The notes under the pieces: model-generated
What the model was told of the DNA's origin: nothing
The model's database searches: none
The model's input: only the letters and a program-made list of their open reading frames with translations
Program-made: the position numbers and the translations under genes
Shown: positions 29,291 through 57,719 of the stretch, piece by piece
How the letters are laid out: the number at the start of each line of letters is the position of its first letter
How positions within the stretch are numbered: position 1 is the stretch's first letter
From: an uncultured Candidatus Saccharibacteria bacterium
GTDB taxonomy: Bacteria > Patescibacteriota > Doudnabacteria > UBA920
Assembly: GCA_964505635.1 (NCBI GenBank)
Contig: CAZDIP010000003.1
Location: forward strand, 15,313 to 79,312
Direction of reading: 5' to 3'
DNA length: 64,000 bases

Positions 29291-30510
29291 TGAACGCTAT
29301 TTAACATATTTTCAAGCTTTAAATAGGTTTGCTGCGCCAAATGGTTTTTTACCGCCACATTAAAAGCATTTTGTACCATATTGGTATCTTTATTTTTGGA
29401 AGTAAAAGCCTGTCTAATAATTTCTTTTATTTTCTCAATATCATTTGAACCTGTAACATGAGCAAAACCATTACTTTTAGCATATTTATACATAAAAGAT
29501 TCTTTTGGCGAGTTAACTAAAATAGGCCTTCCTGAAATAAGATATTCGCAAAGTTTTCCCGGGCTTGAAGTATTTATAAGTTGGGGAAACTTGGTGTTAA
29601 AACTTAAGGCCACAAGCAACAAGTCACTCTTTGCCATTACGCCCGAAACTTCTTGGGGAGAACAAAAATCAAAAAAAATTTTCCCGCTTTCACGTATTCC
29701 AATGCTATGCATATATTCTTTTGAGTGCGGGGTATATAAAACCAATTTTACGGGAATATCGGTAAGTTTTTCCACTGCCGAAGCCACACTTCTAACCGCG
29801 TCCTCTTGTGCCCAATATATATTGCCTAAAAAAACAATTCTAAATTCTGAGTCCGGCAATGCAGGCAAATTCGCAGCTATTGGCTGAAAATCTATGGAGT
29901 TATGGATAACCTCAACATGCCTGCGGTATTTTTTTTCATAGTGTTCTCTTAATTCCTCGCACATTACGGAGATTTTTGAAGCTTTCTTAAAAAGCCTTGG
30001 CTCAAGCCAGAAGGCGACCCACTTAAAAAGTATGGGCATTTTATTGCCTATATACATATCATAAAAATGCAAGGCAAAGGGCTTGCCAGTAAGTTTATGG
30101 AGCATATACACGGAAAATAAAACCAGTCCCCAATCCGAATAACCTAAAATTACCTCAATCCCCTGTTCCTTAACCGCTCTTTTCCCCAAGATAATTATTC
30201 CAATGGGAATCGTGAACCACAATACAATTTGTGCAAAAAATTTGGTTAACCAAAAATTTTTAATTATCCTCTTAAGTTTTTGTAATTTAGGCTCTTGCCT
30301 ATCGTTAAACTTCACAGCCAAAACTTTATTCCCGTAATAATAATAAGGAATTTTTAATCTGTATTCCTGCAATTTTGGATCCAAATTTTCCTCGCTCGTC
30401 AAAATAGCCAAATCTTTCTGTGGTAAATATTTAAGCAAAAAATACATCATTAGGCCTGAACCACTGCCTGAAGGCGGGGCATATGCGGAAATAACTAAAG
30501 TCTTTTTCAT
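29287..30510 (-). CDS. glycosyltransferase (GT4-like)
   Basis: An N-terminal GT-B domain pattern and a C-terminal nucleotide-sugar binding region. The assignment is weak. Confidence 0.4.
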   Translation of the reverse strand: MKKTLVISAYAPPSGSGSGLMMYFLLKYLPQKDLAILTSEENLDPKLQEYRLKIPYYYYGNKVLAVKFNDRQEPKLQKLKRIIKNFWLTKFFAQIVLWFTIPIGIIILGKRAVKEQGIEVILGYSDWGLVLFSVYMLHKLTGKPFALHFYDMYIGNKMPILFKWVAFWLEPRLFKKASKISVMCEELREHYEKKYRRHVEVIHNSIDFQPIAANLPALPDSEFRIVFLGNIYWAQEDAVRSVASAVEKLTDIPVKLVLYTPHSKEYMHSIGIRESGKIFFDFCSPQEVSGVMAKSDLLLVALSFNTKFPQLINTSSPGKLCEYLISGRPILVNSPKESFMYKYAKSNGFAHVTGSNDIEKIKEIIRQAFTSKNKDTNMVQNAFNVAVKNHLAQQTYLKLENMLNSVQ

Positions 30511-31718
30511 TAAAAAATCCCGTAAGCTTCGTTAATAAATTTATTTGCGGTCAAATTTTTTTTCAATCTTGATTTCTCAAAAAATCCGGAAGAAATTTTT
30601 TCCATCAAGTCTTCAAAAACCAGCTGGCTGGGGCTTTGCTTGCTGGGATTTAATGCGTAACGGTTCCAGTCTCTTTCTAAATCCAGGGCTTTTTTGGCGC
30701 CTTCGTAAATATCGCCGTCCGACAAAATGGTCGCGCCTGCCTGTATGGTTTCCGGCCTTTCCGTTGAAAGCCTGGAAATTAACGCAGGCACGCCTAAAAT
30801 TAAAGCCTCTTCCTGCACTGTTCCGCTGTCGCTGATTATTAACCTGGCTTCCTTCTGGAGTTTTAAAAATTCAAAATACCCCAAAGGCTTGGTAATTTTT
30901 ATGCCTGCATCTTCCGCTTCGGAAAGTAAGTTAATTTTTTCCAAATTACTCCTAACCCTGGGCATAAGCGGCCAAATCACTGTTACTTCTTTGGCAAGTT
31001 TTATAAGCCCCCCGACTTTTTCTTTAAGTTTGTTTAAATCAGACGTATTTTCTTCCCTGTGCAGGGTGACCAGCGCGTAATCTCCTGCTTCTAAGCCATG
31101 TTCTTGAATAATTTTTGTTTTATCCGCCATTGGCAAAAACTCTTCCACCGCGTCGTAAATTATATTCCCTATCACCTTAATCCTAAAATCCTCTATACCC
31201 TCCGACAAAAGCATTTCTTTATACCTGGGCATGTATGCATAAAGCGCGTCCGACATATGATCTATGACAATTCGGCATTTTTCTTCCGGCATGCGCCAGT
31301 CGTAACTGCGGCCGCCGGCCTCCAAATGAATGACCGGAATATTGTTGCGGGCCGCCACAATGCTGGACAACACGCTGTTTGTGTCTCCCAAATACATTAT
31401 GACATCAGGCTTTTCCCGGTTTATGAGTTCCAAAACTTTGGGAAATAAAATTCCTGTCTGATATTCAAAGCTTGTAGGGCCGCCGGCTGACTTAACAGCC
31501 AGTCCAACCCCCAAATTAATTTGCGGCCTTCGTACGCCCAATTGCTCATAAAAAATCCCGTCCAGCTCCTGGTCATAATGCTGGCCGGTATGCGCGTAAA
31601 TATGGGTATATCCGTACTTGTTCTGATTTTCGTCTAACAGCTTAATGAGCTTAAACATCCGAATAATATCGGGACGGATTCCGAGCAGGGTAATTAATTT
31701 AAATTTTTTTTCTGGCAT
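30510..31718 (-). CDS. UDP-N-acetylglucosamine 2-epimerase (non-hydrolysing, WecB/NeuC family); the start is probably Met17 (MPEKKF), whereas the ORF track extends to 31766
   Basis: ITLLGIRPDIIRM, HTGQHYD, and a family-typical length and order. Confidence 0.7.
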   Translation of the reverse strand: MPEKKFKLITLLGIRPDIIRMFKLIKLLDENQNKYGYTHIYAHTGQHYDQELDGIFYEQLGVRRPQINLGVGLAVKSAGGPTSFEYQTGILFPKVLELINREKPDVIMYLGDTNSVLSSIVAARNNIPVIHLEAGGRSYDWRMPEEKCRIVIDHMSDALYAYMPRYKEMLLSEGIEDFRIKVIGNIIYDAVEEFLPMADKTKIIQEHGLEAGDYALVTLHREENTSDLNKLKEKVGGLIKLAKEVTVIWPLMPRVRSNLEKINLLSEAEDAGIKITKPLGYFEFLKLQKEARLIISDSGTVQEEALILGVPALISRLSTERPETIQAGATILSDGDIYEGAKKALDLERDWNRYALNPSKQSPSQLVFEDLMEKISSGFFEKSRLKKNLTANKFINEAYGIF

Positions 31719-31775
31719 TAATAAAGTAATTAAATTACTATACAAGTATAACAAAAACAATACCAATTTATAATA

Positions 31776-31804
31776 TTGACAAAATTGTTAAAATAATGTA
31801 TAAT
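31776..31804 (+). promoter_or_regulatory. exact consensus sigma70 promoter TTGACA-N17-TATAAT facing the GC-rich cassette
   Basis: TTGACA at 31776-31781, a 17-nt spacer and TATAAT at 31799-31804. Confidence 0.45.
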
Positions 31805-31830
31805 ATATATTTAACTAAATATTTGTGCTT

Positions 31831-31864
31831 AAAAAAATAGGCTTATTCATAAGCTTGGTTTTTT
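31831..31864. terminator. A-run/hairpin/U-run element (bidirectional intrinsic terminator or leader attenuator)
   Basis: AAAAAAAT-AGGCTTA-TTCA-TAAGCTT-GG-TTTTTT. It lies between the promoter and the first ORF of the cassette, at the AT-rich/GC-rich boundary. Confidence 0.4.
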
Positions 31865-31986
31865 ACACGCAAAGCCTGTATGGGTGTGTGTAAATGCGGC
31901 AGGGTTAACAGCCCTGACTTAAGAGTTTGTTGTTAAGGAGGATCAGGTTTATGCCTGAATCCACCCTGTAGCAACGGCTCCAGAAA

Positions 31987-32565
31987 ATGTTTGACAGTAT
32001 ACGACGGGAAAATAACCGCCCTCTCGTTCTCCCTAATATGCCCAATTTGCATATCGTGGCGCTCTCAGCACCTCCCCTCATGACTCCTGGCGCGACTGTT
32101 ATGTCGGAATTTACGGCAGACAATGTCGCGAGAATCGTTCATGCGTCTAACCTGCGTGAGCAGGTACAAGACGCTAAACTGGTGTTGAATGGGGAAAGCA
32201 ACCAACTCACCATGATGCTGCACATCGCGCTTAAGTGCGGGGTGCCGGCAAACTTCATTGAGCTGGTAGACTGCAACCCGCGCCCCAACGGAAATACTCG
32301 CACACAGCTCCAAAAGATGGAAAAAGACCTGCGCTTCCCGCAGGATGGCTACTATGTGTTTGTGACCGTTTCGTGGCATATGCCACGGGTTATCGCGACC
32401 GCCCGCAAACAACTCAAGCGGCTTGCCAACCATATGGTCGTCGGCGTACCGTACGCTGATTTCCACGACTTTGACTGGAACGAAAAGGTCGCCGACGAAA
32501 TGTGGCGCATCCCCCAATACATCAACAAGGGAGACATTGCCGACCCGACAATCGGCATGGAGTAG
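31987..32565 (+). CDS. DUF218 (YdcF/ElyC/SanA family) domain protein, GC-rich foreign-like gene
   Basis: Order LHIVALSA, KLVLNGES, CGVPANFIELVDCNPRPNGNTRTQ and YVFVTVSWHMPRV matches the DUF218 core pattern vvvLGG, vvsGG, GVp...ie..S.nT.eNa and vvVTs..HmpRa. GC is about 53%. Confidence 0.5.
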   Translation: MFDSIRRENNRPLVLPNMPNLHIVALSAPPLMTPGATVMSEFTADNVARIVHASNLREQVQDAKLVLNGESNQLTMMLHIALKCGVPANFIELVDCNPRPNGNTRTQLQKMEKDLRFPQDGYYVFVTVSWHMPRVIATARKQLKRLANHMVVGVPYADFHDFDWNEKVADEMWRIPQYINKGDIADPTIGME

Positions 32566-32571
32566 CCACCT

Positions 32572-33237
32572 ATGCTCCCTCCTCGTGATAAGAACGGTTT
32601 TCAAGTCATTGCCTCGAGCGCAGGCGTGAAAGTGGAAACCTGTTTTGCTGAATTCAATGTCCGGCAGCAGACTGCTGCCAACGGACAAACGGAAACGTGG
32701 GGCCGGCTTATAACCCGTCCTGCGTTTGAAGTCGCGTTGCTTGCAAAGGAAGACGGCGAAACCAAAGTTCTCCTTATGCAAAAACAGCGCCTCGCGGGCG
32801 AACCCCCGGTCACTAAATGTCCGGGCGGATACATCTTCTTAAAAGGCAGCGAACTCAACTTGGACAACTTCCTGTCTAAGATCCTTGGCGGCGGATTCGG
32901 CTCTGTTGACCTGTATGACGTTCTGCCTTTCGGTTCGTTCATTGAAGAACGAATGTTGTCCTTAGGGATCTGTACTAACTTTACAAACATGCAGCTCTTT
33001 GGCTGCGTGGTAGGTCACGGCGAAATCATTACCCCCATTCTCCTGCTTGCCACCAACAAATGGCAACAGGTCGCGCCCCCGCCAGAGGGCATATCTTTCC
33101 GCAAAATGCTTCTTTCGGAAGCGGCGCGCCTGGCAGTGCAAACCGTCCAGATAGGCCGACGGATGAAAGATGCGCTTGACAGCGACAGCAGCGTGGAGCT
33201 GCTATTGTCGCTGTACGCCAAAGAACAGCTCCGCTAA
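32572..33237 (+). CDS. hypothetical protein with weak NUDIX-fold-like pattern (degenerate Nudix box), GC-rich foreign-like gene
   Basis: KVLLMQKQR...CPGGYIFLKGSE...ILGGGFG resembles the strand-loop-helix of a Nudix fold but lacks the REx2EE glutamates. SD GGAG sits 9 nt upstream. It lies 6 nt after the upstream gene. Confidence 0.3.
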   Translation: MLPPRDKNGFQVIASSAGVKVETCFAEFNVRQQTAANGQTETWGRLITRPAFEVALLAKEDGETKVLLMQKQRLAGEPPVTKCPGGYIFLKGSELNLDNFLSKILGGGFGSVDLYDVLPFGSFIEERMLSLGICTNFTNMQLFGCVVGHGEIITPILLLATNKWQQVAPPPEGISFRKMLLSEAARLAVQTVQIGRRMKDALDSDSSVELLLSLYAKEQLR

Positions 33238-33242
33238 CTATA

Positions 33243-33288
33243 ACCGCGGCTTGAATGCATCCCACAAGATGACAAACAAGCCGCGGCC
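33243..33288 (+). other. 10-bp perfect inverted repeat with 26-nt loop immediately after cassette gene 2
   Basis: CCGCGGCTTG ... CAAGCCGCGG. Confidence 0.4.
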
Positions 33289-33308
33289 AAACTCTTTACT
33301 AACTTTGC

Positions 33309-33330
33309 CCGGCTTTAAGGCCGGTTTTTT
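33309..33330 (+). terminator. intrinsic terminator of the GC-rich cassette; the hairpin spans the stop codon of the convergent EEP gene
   Basis: CCGGC-TTTAAG-GCCGG followed by TTTTTT. Confidence 0.5.
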
Positions 33331-34100
33331 ATTTCAAACCAAAGCTCCATAGGCAAATGGTCGGAAACCAAGTTATAAGGAACCCTAAAATCCCTTACCT
33401 TAATTTCTTTGGAAACAAAAGTAAAATCCGCAAAATACTGCACGTTTTTATTATTTTGCCACGAAACTTCATTGCGCGTATTTTTTATATTAAATTCTTT
33501 AATTAAGTTTTTACCCACCGACTCTAAAATTTTTATGCTCTTTGTTTTTAATTCCAAATTAAAATCTCCGCATAAAATTTTAGGTCCGGCCATGCTTTGC
33601 CACAAATTTTTTAAATTTTTAGACTGGAGAAGCCTTCTTTTGGTGTCAAATTTATTACCCGGTCTGCTCATGCCATGAAAATTTATTACAGAAAATTTTT
33701 CTTTCGCCTTTTTTAAAACCAAAGTCTGGGCAACAAAATCCCCCTCCGAAGGGTGGTCGGTCTTTGCTCTGCCGGTTATAACGACTGAATTGGAATTTAA
33801 AATTTCCACACTATTTTTTACAAAAACCGCCAAGCCCTGGCAGACCGGAAAATTTAAACGGCTGGAAACATCAAAACCAAAAACCCTAGGTATAAAAATC
33901 CCCGTAAAATTAGCAAGTTTTTTGCTTAGTTCCTGGAATAAAAAAAGTCTGGATTTATGCCAAACCTTAGGAGCGGGTCCATAAGAAGACAACATTTCCT
34001 GAAAGCAAAAAATGTCTGTATTTTTAGCCAAAGGCTTTAAATAATCAAGCAATTGTTTGCCTTGTCTGCCGCCCCAAATATTAAGCGAAACTAATTTCAT
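33315..34100 (-). CDS. endonuclease/exonuclease/phosphatase (EEP) family protein
   Basis: N-terminal MKLVSLNIWGG and conserved EEP-fold motifs (FCFQE, GDFN, a C-terminal SDH). Confidence 0.65.
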   Translation of the reverse strand: MKLVSLNIWGGRQGKQLLDYLKPLAKNTDIFCFQEMLSSYGPAPKVWHKSRLFLFQELSKKLANFTGIFIPRVFGFDVSSRLNFPVCQGLAVFVKNSVEILNSNSVVITGRAKTDHPSEGDFVAQTLVLKKAKEKFSVINFHGMSRPGNKFDTKRRLLQSKNLKNLWQSMAGPKILCGDFNLELKTKSIKILESVGKNLIKEFNIKNTRNEVSWQNNKNVQYFADFTFVSKEIKVRDFRVPYNLVSDHLPMELWFEIKNRP

Positions 34101-34102
34101 AA

Positions 34103-34990
34103 TTAAAGTCCCTCAAGCATTTGCTGAAAACTTGGTATTTCTAATTTCTTACAAACATCAAATTTAGTAGACAATCTTCGATCAACCGCGGCAACTTCTG
34201 CCTTCTCAATTATCGCGTTGATTTTGTATTTTTCCTTAAACGCCAGCAACATATCGTACTTGCTTACGTCATTGCCAAAAATATGGAATAAACCAAAAGA
34301 AGGAAAACTTCCGCGGTCATTAATAATCCTGGCGCAAACCTTCCCAAACTGCCTGGTGGTAATTCCATTCCAAAAATGGTTGGTAAAACCGGTTATGGTT
34401 TGTCCTTCCTGTTTCTTAAACCAGGCTATTAACGAGCTGCCTTCCCCAAGCTCCGGACCAATAATAGAAGTTCTCAATATTAGCGAATTAGCGGACGGTT
34501 CCCCCAAAGCTTTAGACAGGCCGTATAAGTCGTTGGGGCTTTTTGGCGACTCTTCGGAGTACGGCGCGCCGCTAACTCCTGAAAAGGCGCAGTCAGTGGT
34601 AATTTGGATAAGTTTTTCCTTATACTCAGCAGACAGTATGTGCGGCAAACTGCCGTTTATAAACATTGTAATTTCGGGGTTTTTTAAACTGTGGGGTTTT
34701 ATAATACCGGCGCAGTTAACAACCGCGTCAATTTCGCCGATTTCCAAATAAAGCTGCCTGAGTTTTGGCGAAATATGCTCTTTGGGAAAACCGGCAATAT
34801 ATTCTTTATACAAATCCGAAAAATCAAATTGAATTTTTTTATGCTTTTCCAATCCCCCGTAAGTTTGGCTGAGTAAATTTAATTTTGCTTCATCCCGGTA
34901 AACTAAAACCAAATCAAAAACATCTTTCAACTGGTCATAAACCTGGTTTCCCAGCATTCCGGTAGGGGCTAAAATTGCAACTTTTTTCAT
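34103..34990 (-). CDS. SDR-family sugar nucleotide reductase/epimerase (RmlD-like)
   Basis: N-terminal Rossmann fold AILAPTGMLG, a YGLSK (YxxxK) motif and a length of about 295 aa. Confidence 0.5.
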   Translation of the reverse strand: MKKVAILAPTGMLGNQVYDQLKDVFDLVLVYRDEAKLNLLSQTYGGLEKHKKIQFDFSDLYKEYIAGFPKEHISPKLRQLYLEIGEIDAVVNCAGIIKPHSLKNPEITMFINGSLPHILSAEYKEKLIQITTDCAFSGVSGAPYSEESPKSPNDLYGLSKALGEPSANSLILRTSIIGPELGEGSSLIAWFKKQEGQTITGFTNHFWNGITTRQFGKVCARIINDRGSFPSFGLFHIFGNDVSKYDMLLAFKEKYKINAIIEKAEVAAVDRRLSTKFDVCKKLEIPSFQQMLEGL

Positions 34991-35004
34991 AAATTTATAA
35001 TGTG

Positions 35005-35457
35005 TTACCTGGGCTTAACGCTCCAGACGTCCCCGAATTTATACGGATCCGTTCGTTTGTCGTCGGCTATGCTTTCTTCAAAGCTTGAGGTGGATCCGCA
35101 AACCAAAATAGTATTGTCTTCCAAGCTTACCCACCCGTTGGCAAAACCAGGAGGAATGACTACCAAGGTCGGCTTTCGCGCGGAAGAAATGAAAGTAAAT
35201 TGCTCTTTTTCATCGACCGGATTTATCGCAACAAACTTTGCAGAGCCGCTGACAATAATAAAATATTTCCATTCATTTTCATGAAAATGAAAACCGCGTA
35301 TTATTCCTTTGCCATAATTATACACGTAATACATGCGCTTAATTTTTAGCCCATTTGTGCCGGGTAAATCATCGCTGCTGTTTAAAAATGGGATAAAAGT
35401 ACCGCGGTCATCTCCTTTGACGGTAATTTCCATTGCGTAAGGTTTGGTTGATTTCAT
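35005..35457 (-). CDS. sugar 3,4-ketoisomerase cupin (FdtA/QdtA, WxcM-like domain)
   Basis: RGFHFHENEW cupin motif and a length of 150 aa typical of FdtA. Confidence 0.6.
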   Translation of the reverse strand: MKSTKPYAMEITVKGDDRGTFIPFLNSSDDLPGTNGLKIKRMYYVYNYGKGIIRGFHFHENEWKYFIIVSGSAKFVAINPVDEKEQFTFISSARKPTLVVIPPGFANGWVSLEDNTILVCGSTSSFEESIADDKRTDPYKFGDVWSVKPR

Positions 35458-35494
35458 AAAAAATTTAATCCTTCTATTTACTGCTTAATACTCG

Positions 35495-36463
35495 CTATTT
35501 ATTAATGGTATTATTTTCGTAGTCTTTCAGAATCTGGATCATATATTTTGCGTTTGAATAAAAATCGCTGTCCAAATTATTTACGCGCTTCTGGGTAATT
35601 ATGTCTTTTATTTGTATACTCCCGAATAAAACGTCCAACTCGCCTTTTTCAGGCAATATCCCGTCTTTGACTGCTTTTGAAGTATCGGCATTATAATTAC
35701 GGTTATCCTGAAATTTTTGCTCCGTGGTTTTAATTTCGCAATGGGTTATACTTTGGATTTTGTTCGCGACTTCTATAATGGTAAGATTTTCGGTAGCTAA
35801 ATTATAAATGCCTTTTAAATCATTGTCTATATTTTCTACCAAAAACCTGCCTATATCGCGGACATGTATAAACGGCCGCCACTGATTGCCTCCAAAAACT
35901 TCCAGATACCCGCGCCTCAGTGCGTTCATGGTCATATAGTTTACAGCCAAATCCATGCGCAAACGGGAATAAGTGTCAGACACCCCGTAGGCCGTGCCTA
36001 AACGAAAAATTAAGGCATCTTTATCTTTTAAATAGGCTTCTGCGGCAAGTTTTGTCTTAGCGTATTCGGAAAGCGGATTTGTCGCGGAAAGTTCGTTAAC
36101 CGGCTGGTCAGACGCGCCGTACACAGAACAAGTGGAAGTAAACAAAATTCGGCCTTCAAAATTTTTACAAAGCCATTCCACGGTATCCTGGTTTATGGCT
36201 TTTGTTAATTTTGGGTCAATGGCACAGACCGGATCCCCTACCAAAGCCGCCAGCCAAACTACATGGGAATAATCAGACAAAATTTTAGAAAGTTTGCGCG
36301 TGTCGCGTATGTCGCCGTATATAAATTCCACTGGCTTTAAAAAATGGTTTTCGTAAGTCAAATTGTCGTATACCGCAAAAGGAATGTTTTTTTCTAAAAG
36401 CTGGTCGGAAACCCCGCCGCCAATATACCCTGCGCCGCCTACTACCAAAACTTTTTTTATCAT
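35495..36463 (-). CDS. NAD-dependent epimerase/dehydratase (SDR, UDP-sugar 4-epimerase-like)
   Basis: VLVVGGAGYIGG Rossmann motif, STCSVYG, and YAKTK (YxxxK). Confidence 0.65.
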   Translation of the reverse strand: MIKKVLVVGGAGYIGGGVSDQLLEKNIPFAVYDNLTYENHFLKPVEFIYGDIRDTRKLSKILSDYSHVVWLAALVGDPVCAIDPKLTKAINQDTVEWLCKNFEGRILFTSTCSVYGASDQPVNELSATNPLSEYAKTKLAAEAYLKDKDALIFRLGTAYGVSDTYSRLRMDLAVNYMTMNALRRGYLEVFGGNQWRPFIHVRDIGRFLVENIDNDLKGIYNLATENLTIIEVANKIQSITHCEIKTTEQKFQDNRNYNADTSKAVKDGILPEKGELDVLFGSIQIKDIITQKRVNNLDSDFYSNAKYMIQILKDYENNTINK

Positions 36464-36467
36464 AAGA

Positions 36468-39152
36468 TTATTTTTTAAATTTATTTCTTAAACGCCATAA
36501 TTTTAACACAAAATTATACCCCCCGGGAGGCAAAGTTTTTCTTAAATAAACATTCAGGTAATTGCGATTCCTTAAAACCATAATCGTTTTTTTCCATAAA
36601 TTTTTATACTGTGCCTGCTTATGGCTTGCTAAATTTCCGTCAAAACGATAATTTTCTAGCTTTACCCTGGCAATTAAATCCCACCATTTAGATACCATGC
36701 CCTCAAGATGCAAAGATTTTTTTTGCATGACTTGGCGGGGGGTAAATTTCTTTGACAAAATTTCTATCAGACCCTGCTCTAAATCCTCGGTAAACACACC
36801 GCACGAAAGCCTTTCTTCCAAGCTTAAATCTGAAAAAATTCCCACCGGCTTCATTAGCACAGGCACATTGCACAAGCATGCTTCTATGGCTGCCAAACAT
36901 TGAGTTTCAACTTTTGAACCTAAAATAAAAAAATCTGAGCAATTATAAAGCTCGCTTAAAACAGCCTGCTCTAACCTGTTAAACATTAATACGTTTGAGG
37001 CCTGATAAGTAAGTTCGCTTTTTGCAACAACTATAAAAGTAATCTCTGAATGCTTTTCTATTATTGCCTTAACTTCAGGCCAGCCTTTAACCTGGGTCAA
37101 ATCGCCAACAAAAATACCTACCTGTTTACCGGTAATGCCATATTTTTTTCTCAAAGCTTCTTTGTCCTTAGGAATAAATAAATTATCGTCTACCCCTAAT
37201 GGAATAATTTGAAAATAAAATTGCGGGTAAGAAGCTGCTGTCTTAAAACTATTGGCAACCAAGTACTTGGCTTGCTCTAAATTATTTTCTTGTTCAAAAG
37301 ACATTTTCCCCATAGACCGCAAGTCGTCCTGCAAAATTAACGCGGTGGGAACTTGTGGGGTTAACAATCCCATATAACTGGCATTTTGAATAACCAATCT
37401 TGCTTTGGCGAAATTTTCACTAATGTATTTTTCGGCTTTTTGTTCAAAGTCCCTATCGTCGGCATTTACAATTTTTTTATCCAAGCCCGCACTGTGCGGC
37501 AACCCTTCCAATAAAAAATCCCACATTACCTTCTCCCCCATCAAACCGACCAAGGAATTATTCGCAATTACAACCTCCGCGTCCTTAGGAGAATATTTAT
37601 TGTCGGAAATGCTGGTCATCTCCCCTTCCTGAAAATGATAGCTTAAACTGTCATAAACAGTCTGATGTTTAATCCCCAAAGTTTTTAATTTTTCCATTAA
37701 AATAATGTCACCGCTTATGAGTTCCTGGCCTTTTTCGGCTATTTTTGGATTAAAAACATCGCTGCCAACTAAAACATTGCCTTCGGGGTAGCCGCCAACT
37801 TTAAGAAAATGCTCTTTTTTTATTAAAAGCGGCATAAAAGCCCCGCCATCCCTGACCCGATGTGAAGATTTATTTCTTGCGTACTCAACAAATTCCGCTT
37901 CGCGGAATTCCTCAATAAATTTTCCAAAATTTCTCTCAAAGCAAGGATCATCGTTTTCCTCCCTGCCGCTTACAAGCTTACCGCTTTCCACCAACCTGGA
38001 AACAACGCAATTTAAACCATTTTGAGCAGCCAATAAATTTTCAACCCAGTTTGGGGTAAAAGCCATGTCGCTGTTTATAAACAAAACGTAGTCGCCCTTA
38101 GCCATAGATCCCCCGTAATTCCAAGCGCGGTAGACATTGTTAATATACCACTCTTGTTTATGGGTATCGGTATTTTCAAACAAATAATGAGGAATATAGT
38201 TTTCTCTCAAATATTTTTTTACATCTTCCGAGGCGTCATTTGCAACAAAAAAAAATTCTTTATCCGACATTTCTGTATATTTTAAAACTTGTTCATAACA
38301 AAACTTCAACCAATCCGTACTTTTATATATTAAAGCTACAATAGAAACAGCCGGCCGCATAAGCTCGGGCTTTAATTCTTCAGCCAGCCTTAACCATTCT
38401 GCCAATGGTTTTTTTTCCGGTCTAGGGTTTTTTTCAAATAAACCTTTTGGAAATAAATTTTCCTCAACAGGCCTGAGTGTAAGTTCGGATTCGTCTATTA
38501 ATCGGGATAAATTTATGCCTTTTTGCCCGTGCTTTGCGTAAGTTAGATATTTTGCAATTATGCTTTTATCGGTCGCGAAACCAAAATGCAAAAAGCAAAC
38601 AATATCCTGATTCTTTACTTTTTTTATTCCGTCAGGCGCCGGCGACATATGAAGTCCGGACTTTATGCCGCTATACATAATCCCCGGTTTTACTTTCCAA
38701 AAACGAAGAAAATTTGCCTTATCAAAATCATTGTCAGTCCTGGCCCAATTTACAGAACGCCAAAGATTTGCATCTCTCAAATATGCCCCATCCAAACCCT
38801 CTTTTTCCACCCATTCTGCCAATTTCTGTAATTTAGATCCATCGTTGTCAGACAACACTTCGTCGGCATCTATAGACAAGACAAATTCAGCTTTTAACTC
38901 CAAAGCTTTCTCAAGCATTATTTTTTTATGTTCGCGTTCGTTTTTAAAATCATTTTTATTGCCACGTATTACATACGGGGTAAACTGTTGGGCGTATTCC
39001 CAACTTCCATCCGTGCTGGCATCATCATAAATAACTATTTCATCTACATTTTTAGGCAAATACTCAAAAAATCTCTGCAAATGGCCTTTGCGGATTTCGT
39101 TGTGAATTTGGGTTATGGCAATAATTTTATATCTTTTCATAAAATTTCCCAC
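36468..39152 (-). CDS. trimodular glycosyltransferase (two GT2-like domains plus a C-terminal GT4/GT1-like domain), 894 aa
   Basis: N-terminal IIAITQIHNE...IYDDASTDGS (GT2 DxD). A central second GT2-like region (SIVALIYKSTDW...). A C-terminal GT-B-like region. Confidence 0.6.
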   Translation of the reverse strand: MGNFMKRYKIIAITQIHNEIRKGHLQRFFEYLPKNVDEIVIYDDASTDGSWEYAQQFTPYVIRGNKNDFKNEREHKKIMLEKALELKAEFVLSIDADEVLSDNDGSKLQKLAEWVEKEGLDGAYLRDANLWRSVNWARTDNDFDKANFLRFWKVKPGIMYSGIKSGLHMSPAPDGIKKVKNQDIVCFLHFGFATDKSIIAKYLTYAKHGQKGINLSRLIDESELTLRPVEENLFPKGLFEKNPRPEKKPLAEWLRLAEELKPELMRPAVSIVALIYKSTDWLKFCYEQVLKYTEMSDKEFFFVANDASEDVKKYLRENYIPHYLFENTDTHKQEWYINNVYRAWNYGGSMAKGDYVLFINSDMAFTPNWVENLLAAQNGLNCVVSRLVESGKLVSGREENDDPCFERNFGKFIEEFREAEFVEYARNKSSHRVRDGGAFMPLLIKKEHFLKVGGYPEGNVLVGSDVFNPKIAEKGQELISGDIILMEKLKTLGIKHQTVYDSLSYHFQEGEMTSISDNKYSPKDAEVVIANNSLVGLMGEKVMWDFLLEGLPHSAGLDKKIVNADDRDFEQKAEKYISENFAKARLVIQNASYMGLLTPQVPTALILQDDLRSMGKMSFEQENNLEQAKYLVANSFKTAASYPQFYFQIIPLGVDDNLFIPKDKEALRKKYGITGKQVGIFVGDLTQVKGWPEVKAIIEKHSEITFIVVAKSELTYQASNVLMFNRLEQAVLSELYNCSDFFILGSKVETQCLAAIEACLCNVPVLMKPVGIFSDLSLEERLSCGVFTEDLEQGLIEILSKKFTPRQVMQKKSLHLEGMVSKWWDLIARVKLENYRFDGNLASHKQAQYKNLWKKTIMVLRNRNYLNVYLRKTLPPGGYNFVLKLWRLRNKFKK

Positions 39153-39763
39153 GGAACCTGCTTATTTCTTTTACGGCAAATAGCCAACCCCGGATGCAAG
39201 GGCAAGGTAACCAATTCGTGTTCTTGCGTCTGCTTGCTTAACTCAAAAATAGCTTTATAGCCATCGCCACAATAACCGCTTTCGGCAAAATGTTGGTTTT
39301 TTGGGTAAGCATCATGCAATAAAATAATCCCGTCTTGCTTGACTAAAGGAAAAAATGATTCAAAATCTTTTCTTACCGCCTGCTGACTATGATCCGCATC
39401 TATAAACAACATGTCAATAATTAAATTTCTTTCTTTTGCTTCCTTAGCAAAATTTTCGGTACTTCCGCAATAAAATTCGGTTTTTGGAGAATCTTGCATA
39501 TAATCACCCGATTTCTTAACAACATCTACTCCAATTAATTTTTCAGAAACTAAAGGCACCATACGGTTAAAGAGCCGGCACTTGTAAAGCCCAAGCTCAA
39601 CGTAAACTTTAGGCTTTAATGCTTTGGCTAAACTGGCAATAATGTCTTCGTGCACTAAATCTTGTTGACTTTTACCCAAATTCCTTACTTTAGATAAAAT
39701 CTCCTGAAGCCTAAGAATAATAATTTCTTTTTTCATATAACAGAAGCGGTTTGTTTTTGCCAC
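39137..39763 (-). CDS. class I SAM-dependent O-methyltransferase (TylF/MycF or CmcI-like)
   Basis: IGVDV...LFIDADHS...GIILLHD motifs. Confidence 0.5.
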   Translation of the reverse strand: MAKTNRFCYMKKEIIILRLQEILSKVRNLGKSQQDLVHEDIIASLAKALKPKVYVELGLYKCRLFNRMVPLVSEKLIGVDVVKKSGDYMQDSPKTEFYCGSTENFAKEAKERNLIIDMLFIDADHSQQAVRKDFESFFPLVKQDGIILLHDAYPKNQHFAESGYCGDGYKAIFELSKQTQEHELVTLPLHPGLAICRKRNKQVPWEIL

Positions 39764-41097
39764 AAGGCTTTATAAACCTCTCGTCTTATTTTTTTAAAAC
39801 ATATTGCCGCCACAAGCGGAATGCAATAAGAAATTACAGTCGCCCAAGCGCTGCCGACAATGCCAAATTTTGGTATAAAAAACAAGTTCAAGGCAATATT
39901 TACAAAAGCCCCTAATACCGTGGATACAAAATATACTTTTGAATACCCTTCTGTAATTAAATATTGCATCAGTGCGGCAGTTAAAAAAACCGGCACGCCC
40001 GCCCATGCGTAAATTTGCAAAGGTTTTACCGCATGCAAATAAGCCTGTCCGTAAATAATCAAAATAATAGTTTTTGAAAACAAAAAAATAAAAACCGCTA
40101 TGCCTAAAGAAAGCCAAAACATCAACTTATATAAATAACCAAGTCGTTTAAAATAAAAATTTTCTCCGGTTTTTTTGGCATTTACTATGGCCGGAAAAAG
40201 GGACGCGCAAATAATATTGGGGATAAAATACCATATTTCAGAAAGTTTGACCGCGACGGCATATATTCCTACCTGGAGATCGCTTAAAATAAGCTTGATC
40301 ATGGTTTGGTCAATTTTCATATAAATACTGGTCGCTACTGTGACAAACATTAAAGGCCAGGAGTTTTTTAACAATAAAATTATCAACGGCTTGTCAAAAC
40401 TCCAACTAATTTTATTTTCTTGTCTCTTATAGAAATACCATAATATAAACCCCGAGACTATAGCGTCTAAAACATAATTCAAAGTCAACCAAATTACTCC
40501 TTTATTGAAATAAATTACCAAGAGTTTAAAAATCGTGGATACTAAAGTAACTATAACCTGCATTTGAAAAAGCTTTTTTGCCAGAACCTGAGACTGAAAA
40601 TAAATGCTCAAAACTCCGGACACCTGAAAAAGAAAAGTCAGGGAAAAAAGAAAAATTAAAATCCTTGCCAAATAAGAATTTGGGATAAAAAAAGCAGAAA
40701 TGTTTATAGCCGCCACAGCGAAAATTCCACCAATAAACTTTATCCAAAAGCCATTCCCTATAAGAATGTCGCGTCTTTCCGGAAATTTTATCAGTTCCCT
40801 ATTTAAAATAGCGTCAATACCAAAACCTGACAAAAAAGCAAACAGACCCGAAAAACTGACGGCGTAATTTAAAATACCGTATTTTTCCGGGCCCAAATAC
40901 CGAGCTACCATTGCGCCTATAAAAAACGCGACCCCCATATTAAGCATTTGGCCAACAAACATCCAGCCGGTATTTTTCAAATAACGCTTAAAACCTTCAT
41001 GGTTTTTTAGTCTATTGTAAAAATCCGCAAACCAAAAAATAACATTATTATATTGGTTAGAGATGAACGATTGATTATTTTCCATAAAATTTACCAA
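39733..41097 (-). CDS. wzx: oligosaccharide flippase (Wzx, MOP superfamily)
   Basis: About 12-14 TM segments, a length of 454 aa, and a position within the polysaccharide locus. Confidence 0.65.
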   Translation of the reverse strand: MVNFMENNQSFISNQYNNVIFWFADFYNRLKNHEGFKRYLKNTGWMFVGQMLNMGVAFFIGAMVARYLGPEKYGILNYAVSFSGLFAFLSGFGIDAILNRELIKFPERRDILIGNGFWIKFIGGIFAVAAINISAFFIPNSYLARILIFLFSLTFLFQVSGVLSIYFQSQVLAKKLFQMQVIVTLVSTIFKLLVIYFNKGVIWLTLNYVLDAIVSGFILWYFYKRQENKISWSFDKPLIILLLKNSWPLMFVTVATSIYMKIDQTMIKLILSDLQVGIYAVAVKLSEIWYFIPNIICASLFPAIVNAKKTGENFYFKRLGYLYKLMFWLSLGIAVFIFLFSKTIILIIYGQAYLHAVKPLQIYAWAGVPVFLTAALMQYLITEGYSKVYFVSTVLGAFVNIALNLFFIPKFGIVGSAWATVISYCIPLVAAICFKKIRREVYKALWQKQTASVI

Positions 41098-41336
41098 TCT
41101 TTTACTTTATCCTTTGTTTTACTTTTAATTCTCTGGTAAGTTTCTACTGCCCTTTGTTCAAACACCGGCGAAACTAAACGCAAAATCTCATGTCCCATTA
41201 TTCGGTACTGCTTGCCAATTTTATTTGCCCTTAATAAGCCATTCTTAAGCATGCGTTTAATGGTGCTGTTGCTTATTTTTAAAAGCGCCTGGGTTTCTTT
41301 TGGCGTATATACTTGATTGGGTTTTATTTCAGACAT
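41091..41336 (-). CDS. excisionase-family (Xis/MerR-like) helix-turn-helix DNA-binding protein
   Basis: VYTPKETQALLKISNSTIKRMLKNGLLRANKIGKQYRI matches the HTH_17/excisionase-family consensus. It overlaps the wzx start by 7 nt. Confidence 0.55.
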   Translation of the reverse strand: MSEIKPNQVYTPKETQALLKISNSTIKRMLKNGLLRANKIGKQYRIMGHEILRLVSPVFEQRAVETYQRIKSKTKDKVKDW

Positions 41337-41421
41337 AACAAATAATACACCTTAATAGTATCACCAGGTGTCATTGGGTGTCAATTGTTGTTAACATTTT
41401 ATTCTCCGAATCTAACCTTGG

Positions 41422-42396
41422 CTACTGGCACAATTCCTTAAAAATATCTTCCAAAGAGTATTTGTAATCCCACTTTGGGTAGTCTTTGCGAAATTTAGTT
41501 GAATCGTGAACGTCCCATTGCCTATCGCCTTTTCTAGCTGGTTCAAAATATTCCACCTTTGCTTTTTTGCCGGTTTGTTTTTCTATAAAATCTATTGATT
41601 CTTTAACTGAAACGCTCCGCTCTGGGCCTCCCCCTATATTATAAACCGCTGCAATTTTTGGCTGCTGAATAAAATGGTAAAAAGCGTTTATTAAATCGTG
41701 CGCGTGGATTTGGTCGCGCACTTGTTTGCCCTTAAAACCATATAAATTAAAAGTCTCGCCGTTTTTTATGCATTTTGTAAGCTGAGCCAAAAAACCATGA
41801 TATTCGGACCCTTCATGCTGTCTTCCGGTAATGCAGCCCGGCCTGAAACAAGCTGTTTTCATGCCAAAATAGTAGCCATATTCCTGTACATACAAATCCG
41901 CCGCAGTTTTAGAACAGCCGAACAAGCTTCTCATTGTCGTGTCTAAAGGTAAAGACTCGTCATACGGGCTATCGTGATGCCACCTGGTGTCGGTCTCTGC
42001 CAAATTTTCCCGCTTCATATGCTCGCCATACACTTTGTCAGTGGAAACATGGACAAATACCACATCAGGGCAATGTTTTCTTGCTGCTTCCAATAAAATT
42101 AACGTACCCCGGGCATTGACGTCAAAATCCGTTAGGGGCTCATTTTTTGCCCAATCATGGCTAGGCTGGGCAGCGGCATGGATGATTGCGTCAAACTTTA
42201 CCTTGGAAAAAAGCTCGTTTATAGCCTTTTCATCGCGAATATCTATTTCATACTGCGGACTTTTTTTGGGCGTGCCAAAAAAATATGAACGCATGTTGGC
42301 ATCCAGCCCATGAACTTCCCACCCTTTGTCGGTAAAAAATTTTACGGCTTCAGACCCGACAAGCCCGGTACTGCCGGTAATAAGTATTTTTTGCAT
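41422..42396 (-). CDS. NAD-dependent epimerase/dehydratase (SDR); the start is probably MQKILITG, whereas the ORF track begins 15 codons upstream at a GTG
   Basis: ILITGSTGLVGS Rossmann motif, VSTDKVYGE, and YVQEYGYYFGMK (YxxxK). Confidence 0.65.
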   Translation of the reverse strand: MQKILITGSTGLVGSEAVKFFTDKGWEVHGLDANMRSYFFGTPKKSPQYEIDIRDEKAINELFSKVKFDAIIHAAAQPSHDWAKNEPLTDFDVNARGTLILLEAARKHCPDVVFVHVSTDKVYGEHMKRENLAETDTRWHHDSPYDESLPLDTTMRSLFGCSKTAADLYVQEYGYYFGMKTACFRPGCITGRQHEGSEYHGFLAQLTKCIKNGETFNLYGFKGKQVRDQIHAHDLINAFYHFIQQPKIAAVYNIGGGPERSVSVKESIDFIEKQTGKKAKVEYFEPARKGDRQWDVHDSTKFRKDYPKWDYKYSLEDIFKELCQ

Positions 42397-42460
42397 TTTT
42401 TGCTTATTTTTTAGATTAAAATATCTACTAAATAATATCACTTTCTAAAAAATTCTACTA

Positions 42461-42489
42461 TTGACAAATGTTGTAATTTTTGATATAAT
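42461..42489 (+). promoter_or_regulatory. exact consensus sigma70 promoter with extended -10 (TTGACA-N17-TGaTATAAT)
   Basis: TTGACA at 42461-42466, a 17-nt spacer ending in TGA, and TATAAT at 42484-42489. Confidence 0.45.
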
Positions 42490-42539
42490 ATGTAGTTTTC
42501 AGTTGAAATTCCAATATTATATTAGAGGAGGATGCAATT

Positions 42540-43160
42540 GTGGAGTTGAGAAGAAGGTTGGAGAGGGTTATCCTTGAAAACCCGATGTTTGAGTGGGACT
42601 GGAGAAAGTCTCGTGAGCAGCGGCGAGCTGTACACGAACTTTTTTCCACGCCAATACCTCCCAGCGCAAACCCCAAAGGTGGAGTGAGCCGAGAGGTCTA
42701 CTACGGCTTCAAGGAAGGCTGCGCTACAGCAAACGCGGACATGGTCGTCTGCACCCGCCTTGAAACCGGTGAGTGCGCTGTCCTGGCACTTCATAGGGAC
42801 CCAGGCACACCGTTTGGCGGGGTATGGGATATGGGCGGCGGGGCAATCCTCGCCTACCAGGCAATCGCTGATTGCCTAAAAGCCAAATCCCAAAAAGAAA
42901 CCGGTCTCACCCTAGAGCCCGAGGCGCTGTTAGGCTGCTACCGCAACGACGCGCCCGACATGGCGTCAAGCGTCATCGCGCTGTGCTACGTTGCCACAGC
43001 ACCAGTGCAGCAGCTTCAATCAGTGGTTGCCGGGGACGGCAACCACAAGTGGCAATTTTTCACTTTGGCAGACCTGGAGAATCTGCCAGCGAACCAGACC
43101 TACTGGTATGCCATGTATGTCTGGCGCAAGGTCTTAGAGGCCGCGCCACGCGTCCTCTAA
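42540..43160 (+). CDS. NUDIX-fold-like protein with degenerate Nudix box, GTG start, GC-rich foreign-like gene
   Basis: SD GAGGAGG lies 7 nt before the GTG. AVLALHRD...FGGVWDMGGGAILAYQAIADCLKAKSQKETGL follows the Nudix pattern vLLvqR..G.W.lPGG.vE.GE...A.REl.EEtGl, but with the REx2EE glutamates replaced. HKWQFF sits at the usual C-terminal Trp position. GC is about 57%. Confidence 0.4.
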   Translation: MELRRRLERVILENPMFEWDWRKSREQRRAVHELFSTPIPPSANPKGGVSREVYYGFKEGCATANADMVVCTRLETGECAVLALHRDPGTPFGGVWDMGGGAILAYQAIADCLKAKSQKETGLTLEPEALLGCYRNDAPDMASSVIALCYVATAPVQQLQSVVAGDGNHKWQFFTLADLENLPANQTYWYAMYVWRKVLEAAPRVL

Positions 43161-43183
43161 ATCAACAACCCCAAGCAACAAAA

Positions 43184-43218
43184 GGCCGACGCTTTCAGCG
43201 CCGGCCTTTCTCATTTTT
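43184..43218. terminator. GC-rich intrinsic terminator after cassette 2, likely bidirectional (it also follows fcl)
   Basis: GGCCGACGC-TTTCA-GCGCCGGCC followed by TTTCTCATTTTT. Confidence 0.5.
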
Positions 43219-43225
43219 AAAATTT

Positions 43226-44164
43226 TTATACCTGATTTTTTATATACCAGTCTATAGTCTTTTTTAGGCCTTCGGCCAAACCAGTTTTAGCTCTAAACCC
43301 AAAACCTTTTGCTGCGCGCGAGACATCGGAAACCCTTCTCAAAGCCCCCTCAGGCTTGGTTTTATCCCACACCAATTTTCCTAAAAAGCCAACATGTCTG
43401 GCAATAGTTTCCGCCAAAATTTTTATTTTTTCTTCTTTGCCGCTGCCTATATTTACAGGCTCGGGGTCTTCATATTTTTCAGCGGCGAGTACAGTAGCCC
43501 TAGCCGCGTCTTCCACATACAAAAATTCCCTGGTTGCCTTGCCGCTGCCATACATGACTATTTCCTCTGTGCCGCTGTTTTTTGCCTCAATAAATTTCCT
43601 TATAAGCGAGGCTACCACATTGGCATGGGCTAAATCAAATTCATCGCCCGGACCGTACATATTAGTGTACAGCAAATTTATACCCGTAAACTTATGCTGA
43701 AGCCTATAGGCTAAAATTTGGGCGGCTAATAATTTTTTGGAAAGCCCGTAAGAAGCATTGCCCGCTTCGGGCAGTCCATTCCAAAAATTTTCTTCCTTAA
43801 ATGGGATACTGGTATGCTCGGGGTAACTGCTGACGGTACCGCCGATTAAAATTTTCTTTACCCCTTCCTTATATGCGCTATCTATAAGGTGCAGACCCAT
43901 AACCGCGTTGTCGTAAAAAACTTCAGCCGCGTGCTCTAAATTATACTTAACGCCGTCAAAATTGGCAGCCAGATGAATAACCAAGTCCTGGCCTTTTACT
44001 GCATAGCGGCAATTAGCCGGAACCCTTAAATCCAGCTGAGAAGACCTTGGACGGTCAATATTTTTTTTTGGCACGCCGCGCCTAAGCAATTCCTGATATA
44101 CATGAGAGCCTAAAAACCCATGGCCGCCGGTTAAAAGTATTTTTGATTTTTTTAAATTTATCAT
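43226..44164 (-). CDS. fcl: GDP-L-fucose synthase (GDP-4-keto-6-deoxymannose 3,5-epimerase/4-reductase)
   Basis: KILLTGGHGFLGSHV, YGLSKK (YxxxK), and Fcl-like length and motif order. Confidence 0.7.
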   Translation of the reverse strand: MINLKKSKILLTGGHGFLGSHVYQELLRRGVPKKNIDRPRSSQLDLRVPANCRYAVKGQDLVIHLAANFDGVKYNLEHAAEVFYDNAVMGLHLIDSAYKEGVKKILIGGTVSSYPEHTSIPFKEENFWNGLPEAGNASYGLSKKLLAAQILAYRLQHKFTGINLLYTNMYGPGDEFDLAHANVVASLIRKFIEAKNSGTEEIVMYGSGKATREFLYVEDAARATVLAAEKYEDPEPVNIGSGKEEKIKILAETIARHVGFLGKLVWDKTKPEGALRRVSDVSRAAKGFGFRAKTGLAEGLKKTIDWYIKNQV

Positions 44165-57137: not shown

Positions 57138-57719
57138 TTGTTAAATTTTACTCCATTTAAGCAATTGATTATTCAATTGAGACAATCAATTTTGTGCTTA
57201 AATTTTTAATTAATTTTACATCTGATTTTAATACCAACACTTAAGGCTCTAGAGATCTCTTAAATATGGTTTTAAAAAGGATGATTATTGAAATCCTATA
57301 TTAAGACTAAAACGCTAACCTATCGACCAAAAACATTACATGCGTTCCTGAAACAGGAAAACAAACATAATATTTTAAGCTAGCTGGCCTATAAAATAGG
57401 CTCAATAATTAATATTAGACATATTGCCTATGCGTTTTCCTGAGTTTGCAATATGTATGAGGTAAGACGTCTTAATTTTAAGTCTGTTACAACAAAAAAT
57501 TAAGCGACCAGGCTTTTTTGTAAAATACAAAAAGCCAGGGAATATTTATATTTTTTACCTTAAATAAGACAAAAAATAACAATAAACATTCCCTGACTTT
57601 TAACTTTACTGAAAAAAGTAAAATTTATACATGTGTGAGTATTTCAGAATTATATCAGTAATTTTTAATATTATAAAATAAGATATCAATTTTGTCAAAT
57701 GCTAATATTTACATTCTAC

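Follow-up and report, generated by a model that had tools for sequence, protein, structure and literature searches.

A stretch of 64,000 nucleotides on contig CAZDIP010000003.1 of an uncultured Candidatus Saccharibacteria bacterium (hereafter the window; GC content ~39%) carries the chromosomal markers G6PD, BipA, transketolase and a type IV pilus ATPase together with a very long glycan locus, which is encoded mostly on the - strand and is interrupted by two GC-rich stretches on the + strand. These two islands (island 1, ~31900-33300; island 2, ~42500-43200) have GC contents of 0.53-0.57 compared with ~0.38 around them, and their edges are sharp. Island 1 contains a DUF218 open reading frame (ORF) and, starting 6 nt later, an ORF of 221 residues; island 2 contains a single ORF of 206 residues. 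An earlier note on this DNA had described the latter two ORFs as Nudix-like proteins, and both are present on the + strand, where and as long as it had them. The locus raises the question of what such proteins do among genes for surface glycans and whether they belong there at all. In our view, they are long-standing parts of the sugar-nucleotide branches of a Patescibacteria-type surface-glycan locus, and sequence considerations lead us to put at roughly 0.45 the probability that both are binders of the pathway's nucleotide-sugars that do not hydrolyse diphosphates in the canonical way, each acting as a sensor, chaperone or regulator of nucleoside-diphosphate (NDP) sugar flux.

The 206-residue protein has a Pfam NUDIX match (PF00293, 27.7 bits against a cut-off of 21.1, E = 3e-6, residues 72-186), by which it is assigned to the Nudix superfamily. 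An N-terminal extension of ~65 residues precedes the Nudix domain, which spans residues ~66-190. Aligned at the canonical 23-residue spacing, its box comprises G101-AILAY-Q107-AIADCLK-A115-K116-S117-Q118-K119-E120-T-G122-L123, and thus reads G-x5-Q-x7-A-K-S-Q-K-E-T-G-L in place of the canonical G-x5-E-x7-R-E-U-x-E-E-x-G-U. The string KAKSQKETG given in the earlier note is right, and within it a single Glu is retained, E120 at the last position. A search of 5.8 billion proteins returned one relative besides the protein itself, P0003, with 57% identity, the box segment of which (G-K-S-A-K-E-C-S-I) keeps the K-S-x-K-E pattern. The dN/dS ratio of this pair is ~0.26, and we therefore regard the 206-aa gene as real and under purifying selection.

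Comparison of the two-sequence 206 profile with PDB sequences gave only weak matches, the best being 3GZ8/3GZ5 and 2FML (E values of 0.045-0.11); hhalign comparisons with NudF and NudK were insignificant. PDB entry 3GZ8 is the Nudix-type transcription factor NrtR of Shewanella oneidensis, the Nudix domain of which is non-enzymatic (PMC5389931; PMC2330246). In the NrtR box, R-K-L-A-E-K-T-A-V, the first Glu is replaced by Lys, as in that of the 206-aa protein. However, NrtR carries a C-terminal winged-helix DNA-binding domain, for which the 206-aa protein has no room; its domain ends at ~190 of 206 residues, the Nudix match ends at ~186 and no further domain was detected. In addition, NrtR genes are found with genes of NAD metabolism, whereas the 206-aa gene is found with glycan genes.

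The 221-residue protein matched nothing in Pfam or NCBIfam, and a word-indexed search returned only the protein itself. An exhaustive phmmer search of 1.84 billion representatives identified 19 relatives of 120-250 residues (E values of 3e-21 to 1e-6). Counts given below for the 221 family refer to these 20 representative clusters, that is, the window copy and its 19 relatives; none of the 20 has a Pfam match. All of the members that carry names come from the Patescibacteria group, and one is a 'Nudix hydrolase domain-containing protein' in UniRef. Relatives and gene content likewise point to Patescibacteria as the group of the host. A single-sequence AlphaFold run was unusable (predicted local distance difference test score, pLDDT, of 36), while a run with the 20-sequence alignment gave a confident model (pLDDT 89.6, predicted template-modelling score 0.84). 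Foldseek comparison of this model with the PDB yielded 207 matches at E <= 1e-3, all top ones being Nudix proteins with a probability of 1.00. The best matches (E values of 2.7e-9 to 4e-8, template-modelling scores of 0.5-0.7) are two-domain ADP-ribose/NDP-sugar pyrophosphatases, and the targets include M. tuberculosis ADPRase (5I8U/1MQW), the E. coli YffH/NudK GDP-mannose hydrolase (3O61/1VIU), E. coli and Klebsiella NudF, human NUDT5 and the Bdellovibrio NDP-sugar hydrolase 5C7Q. The 221-residue query and its targets of 170-203 residues are aligned over 212-238 columns, indicating that the two-domain architecture is shared; matches in BFVD were to generic Nudix folds. By hhalign, the 221 family aligned in register with NudK (probability 50%, E = 1.6e-4) and NudF (E = 0.014), with TRPAFEVALL opposite (E/D)RG..A..LL, DTGI opposite EE(T/A)G and ENDSSF opposite NudF IDNAAS. 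The 221 profile matched PDB sequences weakly, with nine of the ten top matches being Nudix proteins, all aligned at the box. For the modelled structure, a Nudix fold (alpha/beta/alpha, ~130 residues; Pfam clan CL0261) of the ADPRase/NDP-sugar pyrophosphatase type can be considered confirmed.

The box of the 221 family departs from the canonical form in a consistent manner, with the consensus x-K-[IV]-x-x-[DE]-T-G. At the positions of R-E-U-x-E-E-x-G-U, the Arg is variable, the first Glu is Lys in 16 of the 20 members, U is Ile or Val, the middle Glu is never acidic, the last Glu is Asp or Glu in 18, the following residue is Thr in 16 and the Gly is invariant. The catalytic-base loop position (E162/E164 in NudF, D152 in NudK), which falls in a P-r-e-G segment here, carries an acidic residue in only 11 of the 20 members. 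The family differs from the ADPRase subfamily in having Lys, non-acidic residues or Asp in place of the box Glu residues, in lacking a conserved catalytic-base Glu/Asp and in possessing an invariant motif of its own, GHxEIxTP, which contains an invariant His149; Lys and Tyr residues are also conserved. The conserved motifs of the family are TRPAFEV, K-x-PGGY, DTG(I/L), GHxEIxTPI, a Trp, P-x-x-G and ENDSSF, and the N-terminus is conserved as well. The window copy is an outlier. A unique 25-residue insertion at residues ~92-120 expands its box loop (modelled with pLDDT 63-68), so that 48 residues separate G86 from GU compared with 19-25 in every other member. Its box helix reads EERMLSLGI, in which the last position is non-acidic, and the canonical Nudix box pattern has no match in the protein.

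The earlier note was correct that both proteins have a Nudix-like fold, as judged by Pfam for one and by AlphaFold and Foldseek for the other, and that the canonical REx2EE set is absent from both. Its account of how they relate to each other does not hold up. To call them weakly similar is too strong, as BLASTP finds nothing between them and hhalign gives a probability of 1%, although the short hhalign alignment is nevertheless in register at the box. On these grounds a shared origin beyond the superfamily was rejected. Rather than two independent copies, the proteins represent separate branches of the superfamily, one two-domain and ADPRase/NudK-like and the other having one Nudix domain only, preceded by an N-terminal extension of another kind. 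The later conserved Trp that the note had seen in both (NKWQQ and HKWQF) probably occupies different structural positions. In low-confidence alignments with Gmm and NudF, the strand that precedes the C-terminal helix contains W171 of the 206-aa protein, but W164 of the 221-aa protein comes ~12 residues ahead of this strand. The 206 family, the 221 family and NrtR do have in common a Lys at the first Glu position and an acidic residue at the last.

The genes around the islands indicate the pathways to which these proteins may belong. The 206-aa gene lies between a divergent gene for a short-chain dehydrogenase/reductase (SDR) that is an NDP-sugar epimerase/dehydratase and a convergent gene for a homologue of GDP-L-fucose synthase (Fcl). 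The latter scores 222.8 bits with GDPFucSynFcl, its best NCBIfam match, which is under the equivalog cut-off of 500, and is 31% identical to E. coli Fcl over its full length (E = 1e-49). P0003 occupies the same slot, also on the opposite strand, in a 34.8 kb contig of another organism (locus L001), where the flanking SDR and Fcl-like genes are orthologous to those of the window with identities of 84 and 77%, respectively. Island 1, with the 221-aa gene, is flanked by a WecB-type epimerase gene and, beyond one intervening gene, by a set of genes for NDP-6-deoxy-sugars (Table 1), past which lie an 894-residue GT2/GT1 glycosyltransferase, a methyltransferase and a flippase. Members of the 221 family are found within the same set of WecB, RmlD-like, cupin, SDR, glycosyltransferase and methyltransferase genes in three other genomes (loci L020, L021 and L022). 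In L021 the order is WecB, an opposite-strand 221-family gene, RmlD-like, methyltransferase, cupin, SDR, glycosyltransferases and flippase. In L020 the 221-family gene is co-directional and lies between the cupin and RmlD-like genes, with WecB, a 913-residue glycosyltransferase (50% identity) and a Methyltransf_24 gene (57%) as further neighbours, and in L022 it follows the WecB, SDR and RmlD-like genes. The four flanking enzymes of L021 are 60-68% identical to those of the window (WecB 63%), while the Nudix-like protein in the slot (L021 6001-6594) is only 31% identical, which reflects either very fast divergence or replacement in place.

Other members of the family have different surroundings. 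Three Kazan-type loci show the order Glycos_transf_4, RNHCP, 221-family gene and ComEC, a conserved housekeeping neighbourhood, and further members adjoin genes for an RRM protein and a class II aminoacyl-tRNA synthetase-like protein. A locus search with a six-sequence subset of the family gave two genome loci and three metagenome loci. The DUF218 gene, which is the first gene of the island 1 operon, is not beside the 221-family members in other loci and may be the only locally added gene of this island. We note that the DUF218 gene has an alternative start at 32038, which would give a protein of 175 residues, the length of the Logan gene call.

Both islands have the features of autonomous transcription units. 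Perfect TTGACA-N17-TATAAT promoters occur three times in the 64 kb (0.05 expected), each in an AT-rich spacer directly upstream of one of the three GC-rich stretches that the window contains and each starting with TTGACAAA; two of them precede the islands. A strong Shine-Dalgarno sequence (AGAGGAGGA) lies 7 nt ahead of the GTG start of the 206-aa gene at 42540, and in L001 the orthologue is preceded, at a similar distance, by an extended -10 promoter that is just as perfect. Island 1 has a structured 5' leader with a terminator-like hairpin and U-run at ~31838-31865, followed by a strong Shine-Dalgarno sequence (AAGGAGGAT, ~31935) and a six-codon mini-ORF (ATG at 31951, MPESTL*) ahead of the DUF218 start. 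No Rfam family matched this leader, which could be an attenuator or a riboregulator of an unknown type. Terminator-like hairpins end both units; that of island 2, between convergent genes, contains a - strand terminator-like site (43199-43185) and is probably a bidirectional terminator. From these signals, both islands are probably independent of the surrounding operons for their transcription and are probably strongly expressed.

The reading that we prefer combines these observations. Each gene would form its own opposite-strand unit, transcribed from a consensus promoter, translated from a strong ribosome-binding site and closed by a terminator-like hairpin. In the Nudix helix the first metal-binding Glu is replaced by Lys and the middle one by a non-acidic residue, with the last position usually kept acidic. 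We infer that the fold would still bind a sugar nucleotide of the pathway by its nucleoside-diphosphate moiety, that lysines would partly stand in for Mg2+ ions and that canonical diphosphate hydrolysis would be absent; the proteins would then tune or channel NDP-sugar flux as binders or sensors. With Lys or neutral residues in place of the Glu triad, we regard metal-independent binding without canonical hydrolysis as the likeliest outcome. Other Nudix domains with degenerate boxes, such as those of DBC1, TRPM2 NUDT9-H and CFIm25, are described as keeping the fold and using it to bind ligands or partners (PMC5389931; PMC6461439). Those proteins are eukaryotic and usually multidomain, while the proteins of the window are stand-alone bacterial proteins in metabolic operons.

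Several observations weigh against this reading. The invariant His and the conserved Lys and Tyr residues of the 221 family might just as well constitute a non-canonical active site. The window copy, with its insertion and its lack of an acidic box residue, is the most aberrant member and may differ from the rest of its family. Residue conservation in the 206-aa protein is poorly sampled, with one homologue only. In three loci of the 221 family (L006, L007 and L008), no connection with sugar-nucleotide enzymes is obvious. Furthermore, a binder does not explain why the GC excess described below should recur or why these proteins diverge so much faster than their neighbours. The earlier note had suggested that both proteins are catalytically dead and bind a ligand. 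Binding is a reasonable proposal and canonical Mg-dependent diphosphatase chemistry is unlikely, but the loss of REx2EE is not proof of inactivity; such an argument is unsafe because E. coli Gmm, with the box R-L-T-M-A-E-L-G-L, is active (PMC5389931).

Gmm (NudD/WcaH, found in colanic acid and O-antigen clusters) leads to the alternative that survives best, which we regard as a doubtful but serious possibility. By analogy with Gmm, which has lost most box residues and employs a single Mg2+ and a His base, the two proteins might be active non-canonical enzymes that cleave the sugar-phosphate bond to give NDP and sugar, and so trim or edit the NDP-sugar pools of the pathway. In GDP-sugar glycosyl hydrolases, loss of Nudix-motif residues is noted to go with a change of mechanism and not with loss of activity (PMC5389931). 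Gmm is the closest functional analogy that we can suggest for the 206-aa protein, since both would combine a Nudix fold with a surface-polysaccharide locus and a position beside GDP-fucose synthase; in E. coli K-12 the order is gmd-fcl-gmm, with gmm directly beside fcl, just as the 206-aa gene directly adjoins the Fcl homologue. The sole Glu that the Gmm box retains, the last, lines up with E120, and the first Gly is also the same. H169, present in both 206-family members, lies one residue from the catalytic-base His of Gmm in a low-confidence alignment; we take this His to be His124 in the literature numbering. In the 221 family, invariant His149 and the conserved Asp/Glu at the last box position could play comparable roles, although the window copy has no acidic residue there. 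The comparison has clear limits. No specific sequence relationship to Gmm was detected for either family (hhalign probabilities of 0.43% for 206 and 0.59% for 221), and the spacing from His to Trp is different. Gmm has 159 residues without an N-terminal extension, and it retains both the box Arg and the Glu of G-x5-E, which in the 206 family are Ala/Gly and Gln, respectively. Finally, Gmm is co-directional within its operon, whereas the 206-aa gene is a separate opposite-strand unit.

We consider it distinctly improbable that the proteins arrived on mobile cassettes and, as catalytically dead Nudix folds, sense a nucleotide second messenger or a signal derived from NAD (ADP-ribose, for example) in defence or signalling, not in glycan synthesis. 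The composition of the islands speaks for this idea, and the earlier note had spoken of separate foreign cassettes. The island genes have GC contents at third codon positions (GC3) of 0.60-0.65 compared with a neighbour mean of 0.37 (z = 5-6.6), and their codon usage is uncorrelated with that of the host bulk (r = -0.11). Expression-linked codon bias was rejected as the cause of the GC-richness; the S-layer-like gene of the window favours C/T-ending codons and avoids G-ending ones, while the islands use C- and G-ending codons. Composition and codon usage are therefore alien, as the note supposed, but the slots are conserved in related genomes, the GC excess is recurrent and no convincing insertion scars are present, which does not fit separate foreign cassettes. 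The 206-aa orthologue in L001 is equally GC-rich (GC3 0.65). The 221-family gene exceeds the GC3 of its neighbours in six of nine loci (z = 2.3-6.1) with host GC contents of 0.38-0.51, and the 206-family gene does so in both of its two loci, with the excess following host GC approximately, at about +0.1. Because it is repeated in most loci, we regard the GC excess as a recurrent trait of these genes and not as the mark of a recent insertion. The flanking orthologues in L001 are saturated at synonymous sites and the 206 pair is nearly so. In the latter pair, 0.527 of the codons for identical amino acids differ compared with 0.638 expected (z = -2.6), a small excess of shared synonymous codons that hints at later exchange or synonymous constraint.

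No integrase, transposase or convincing flanking repeat was found at the islands. An imperfect 16 nt direct repeat (13/16; TAAGCTTGGTTTTTTA at 31850-31865 and TAAGGCCGGTTTTTTA at 33316-33331) brackets island 1 almost exactly, with its second copy over the end of the convergent gene, and may well be due to chance. Assembly chimerism was rejected at the right junction of island 2, where positions 42451-43832 are matched at 100% identity by an independent Logan contig, and is unlikely at both islands because of the synteny in other genomes. Both islands are present at 100% identity in independent, read-level Logan assemblies of the sibling samples SRR16481187 (L015) and SRR16481186 (L019). The Logan contigs carrying the islands are only 1.2-1.4 kb in length and seem to have been broken close to where the islands end.

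Further observations bear on a sensory or defence role. In its favour, the islands are autonomous opposite-strand units, the proteins diverge much faster than their neighbours, and their nearest structural and sequence neighbours include ADP-ribose binders (ADPRases and the NrtR Nudix domain). PADLOC gave only the candidate family PDC-S07 for the 206 family, at 16 and 14 bits, which does not amount to membership of a defence system. Against such a role, no relatives of either family were found on viral contigs, PHROGs gave no significant match, all neighbourhoods are of the glycan-biosynthesis or housekeeping type and no partner effector gene is present. The link to second messengers, defence islands, phages or plasmids that had been suggested for these proteins thus finds no support.

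It is highly improbable that these are acquired Nudix hydrolase genes which have lost their function or are in decay, or ORFs called in error, for while the window 221-aa copy is the most degenerate of its family (a box-loop insertion and loss of the conserved Asp) and GC-rich DNA does yield long spurious ORFs, such as the antisense frames 32065-32781 and 42522-42794, neither reading frame is interrupted, the homologues share the start codons, the 206 pair is under the constraint noted above, the 221-aa model is confident, transcription and translation signals are in place and the family box (K ... D-T-G) is conserved in the manner of a selected alternative state.

Table 1. Positions of the islands, their signals and their neighbours; coordinates refer to the window unless another locus is named
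Feature	Position	Strand	Remarks
Perfect sigma-70 promoter, island 1	31776..31804	+	TTGACA-17-TATAAT
Structured 5' leader, island 1	31812..31986	+	Minimum free energy -56.8 kcal/mol, z = -3.2 versus shuffled
DUF218 (YdcF/SanA/ElyC-type) protein, 192 aa	31987..32565	+	PF02698 30.3 bits (cut-off 27.6); GC3 0.65
Divergent two-domain Nudix-fold protein, 221 aa	32572..33237	+	Degenerate box; ADPRase/NDP-sugar-pyrophosphatase-like (predicted structure)
Terminator-like hairpin (CCGGCTTTAAGGCCGG) and T-run, end of island 1 operon	33309..33332	+	Overlaps convergent gene stop at 33315
WecB-type UDP-GlcNAc 2-epimerase	30510..31766	-	Divergent neighbour of island 1; TIGR00236 217 bits (cut-off 210)
Exo_endo_phos family gene, 261 aa	33315-34100	-	AT-rich; between 221-aa and RmlD-like genes
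RmlD-like reductase	34103-34990	-	NDP-6-deoxy-sugar gene set
Cupin 3,5-epimerase/FdtA-like protein	35005-35457	-	NDP-6-deoxy-sugar gene set
SDR epimerase/dehydratase	35495-36463	-	NDP-6-deoxy-sugar gene set
SDR NDP-sugar epimerase/dehydratase	41422..42441	-	Divergent neighbour of island 2; syntenic orthologue in L001
Perfect sigma-70 promoter with extended -10 (TGATATAAT), island 2	42461..42489	+
Nudix-domain protein, 206 aa	42540..43160	+	GTG start; PF00293 match
GC-rich hairpin (GGCCGACGC / GCGCCGGCC) flanked by A/T runs	43181..43218		Between convergent 206-aa and Fcl-like genes
GDP-L-fucose-synthase (Fcl) homologue	43226..44164	-	Convergent neighbour of island 2; NCBIfam GDPFucSynFcl best match
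Perfect sigma-70 promoter, 1264-aa protein gene	57670-57698	-
Locus with GC3 excess, L001	10001-10612		206 family (P0003)
Locus with GC3 excess, L011	8001-8726
Locus with GC3 excess, L012	4823-5551
Locus with GC3 excess, L014	2930-3670
Locus with GC3 excess, L020	6001-6588
Locus with GC3 excess, L022	6001-6645

Some further features of the locus deserve mention. The Exo_endo_phos gene downstream of island 1 is not present at the equivalent position of L021. Between the flippase gene and the SDR gene next to island 2 lies a gene for an 81-residue HTH_17 (excisionase/MerR-like) protein (41091-41336, - strand), with a counterpart of 65% identity in L001 (7737-7982); because it is conserved to this degree in the related locus, it may serve to regulate the glycan locus instead of being a mobile-element remnant. 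Two paralogous proteins of ~750 residues with Wzy_C (O-antigen ligase/polymerase) and TPR domains are encoded at 46458-48734 and 50407-52644 (- strand), and such a pair is also found in L001 (15429-19856). The third perfect promoter belongs to the gene for a secreted protein of 1264 residues (53343-57137, - strand), which has a signal peptide, is rich in Thr, Ser, Ala and Gly, has a GC content of ~0.5 and is without a Pfam match. The gene has a 5' leader of ~530 nt, up to ~57670, behind this promoter, close to which is a tRNA-Pro gene (57720-57793, - strand). The protein resembles an S-layer protein or another major (glyco)protein of the surface, and its gene adjoins the glycan locus.

Nudix domains with degenerate boxes (NrtR, DBC1, TRPM2 NUDT9-H, CFIm25 and Gmm) and Nudix genes in polysaccharide loci (gmm) are already known. 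What we consider to be new here is, firstly, the 221 family, which is without a Pfam or NCBIfam model, has so far been seen only in Patescibacteria, appears to be derived from ADPRases and has a conserved alternative box and the GHxEIxTP motif, and, secondly, a near-orphan degenerate Nudix protein adjoining an Fcl homologue. A literature search found no paper on either family.

The cell surface of Patescibacteria is needed for their epibiotic or host-attached life, and almost nothing in their glycan pathways has been characterised. A conserved Nudix-fold component of NDP-sugar metabolism that is unfit for normal hydrolysis would represent either a new kind of flux regulator, as in the binding role that we favour, or a Gmm-like change of chemistry. 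A more far-reaching proposal, which we consider unlikely, is that the 221 family is an undescribed derivative of ADP-sugar pyrophosphatases providing a new enzymatic or regulatory step in the 6-deoxy-hexose/N-acetylhexosamine nucleotide-sugar pathways of these ultrasmall bacteria and that both families evolve under an unusual regime. The two families do share, in several genomes, the combination of autonomous units, fast divergence relative to neighbours and a GC3 excess of ~+0.15-0.25 over the host; if the proposal were true, this combination would point to frequent allele replacement, to recombination with GC-biased conversion or to an arms race at the cell-surface glycan. The islands also caution that sharp compositional boundaries are not always those of recent insertions. 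Defining the 221 family would improve the annotation of Patescibacteria genomes.

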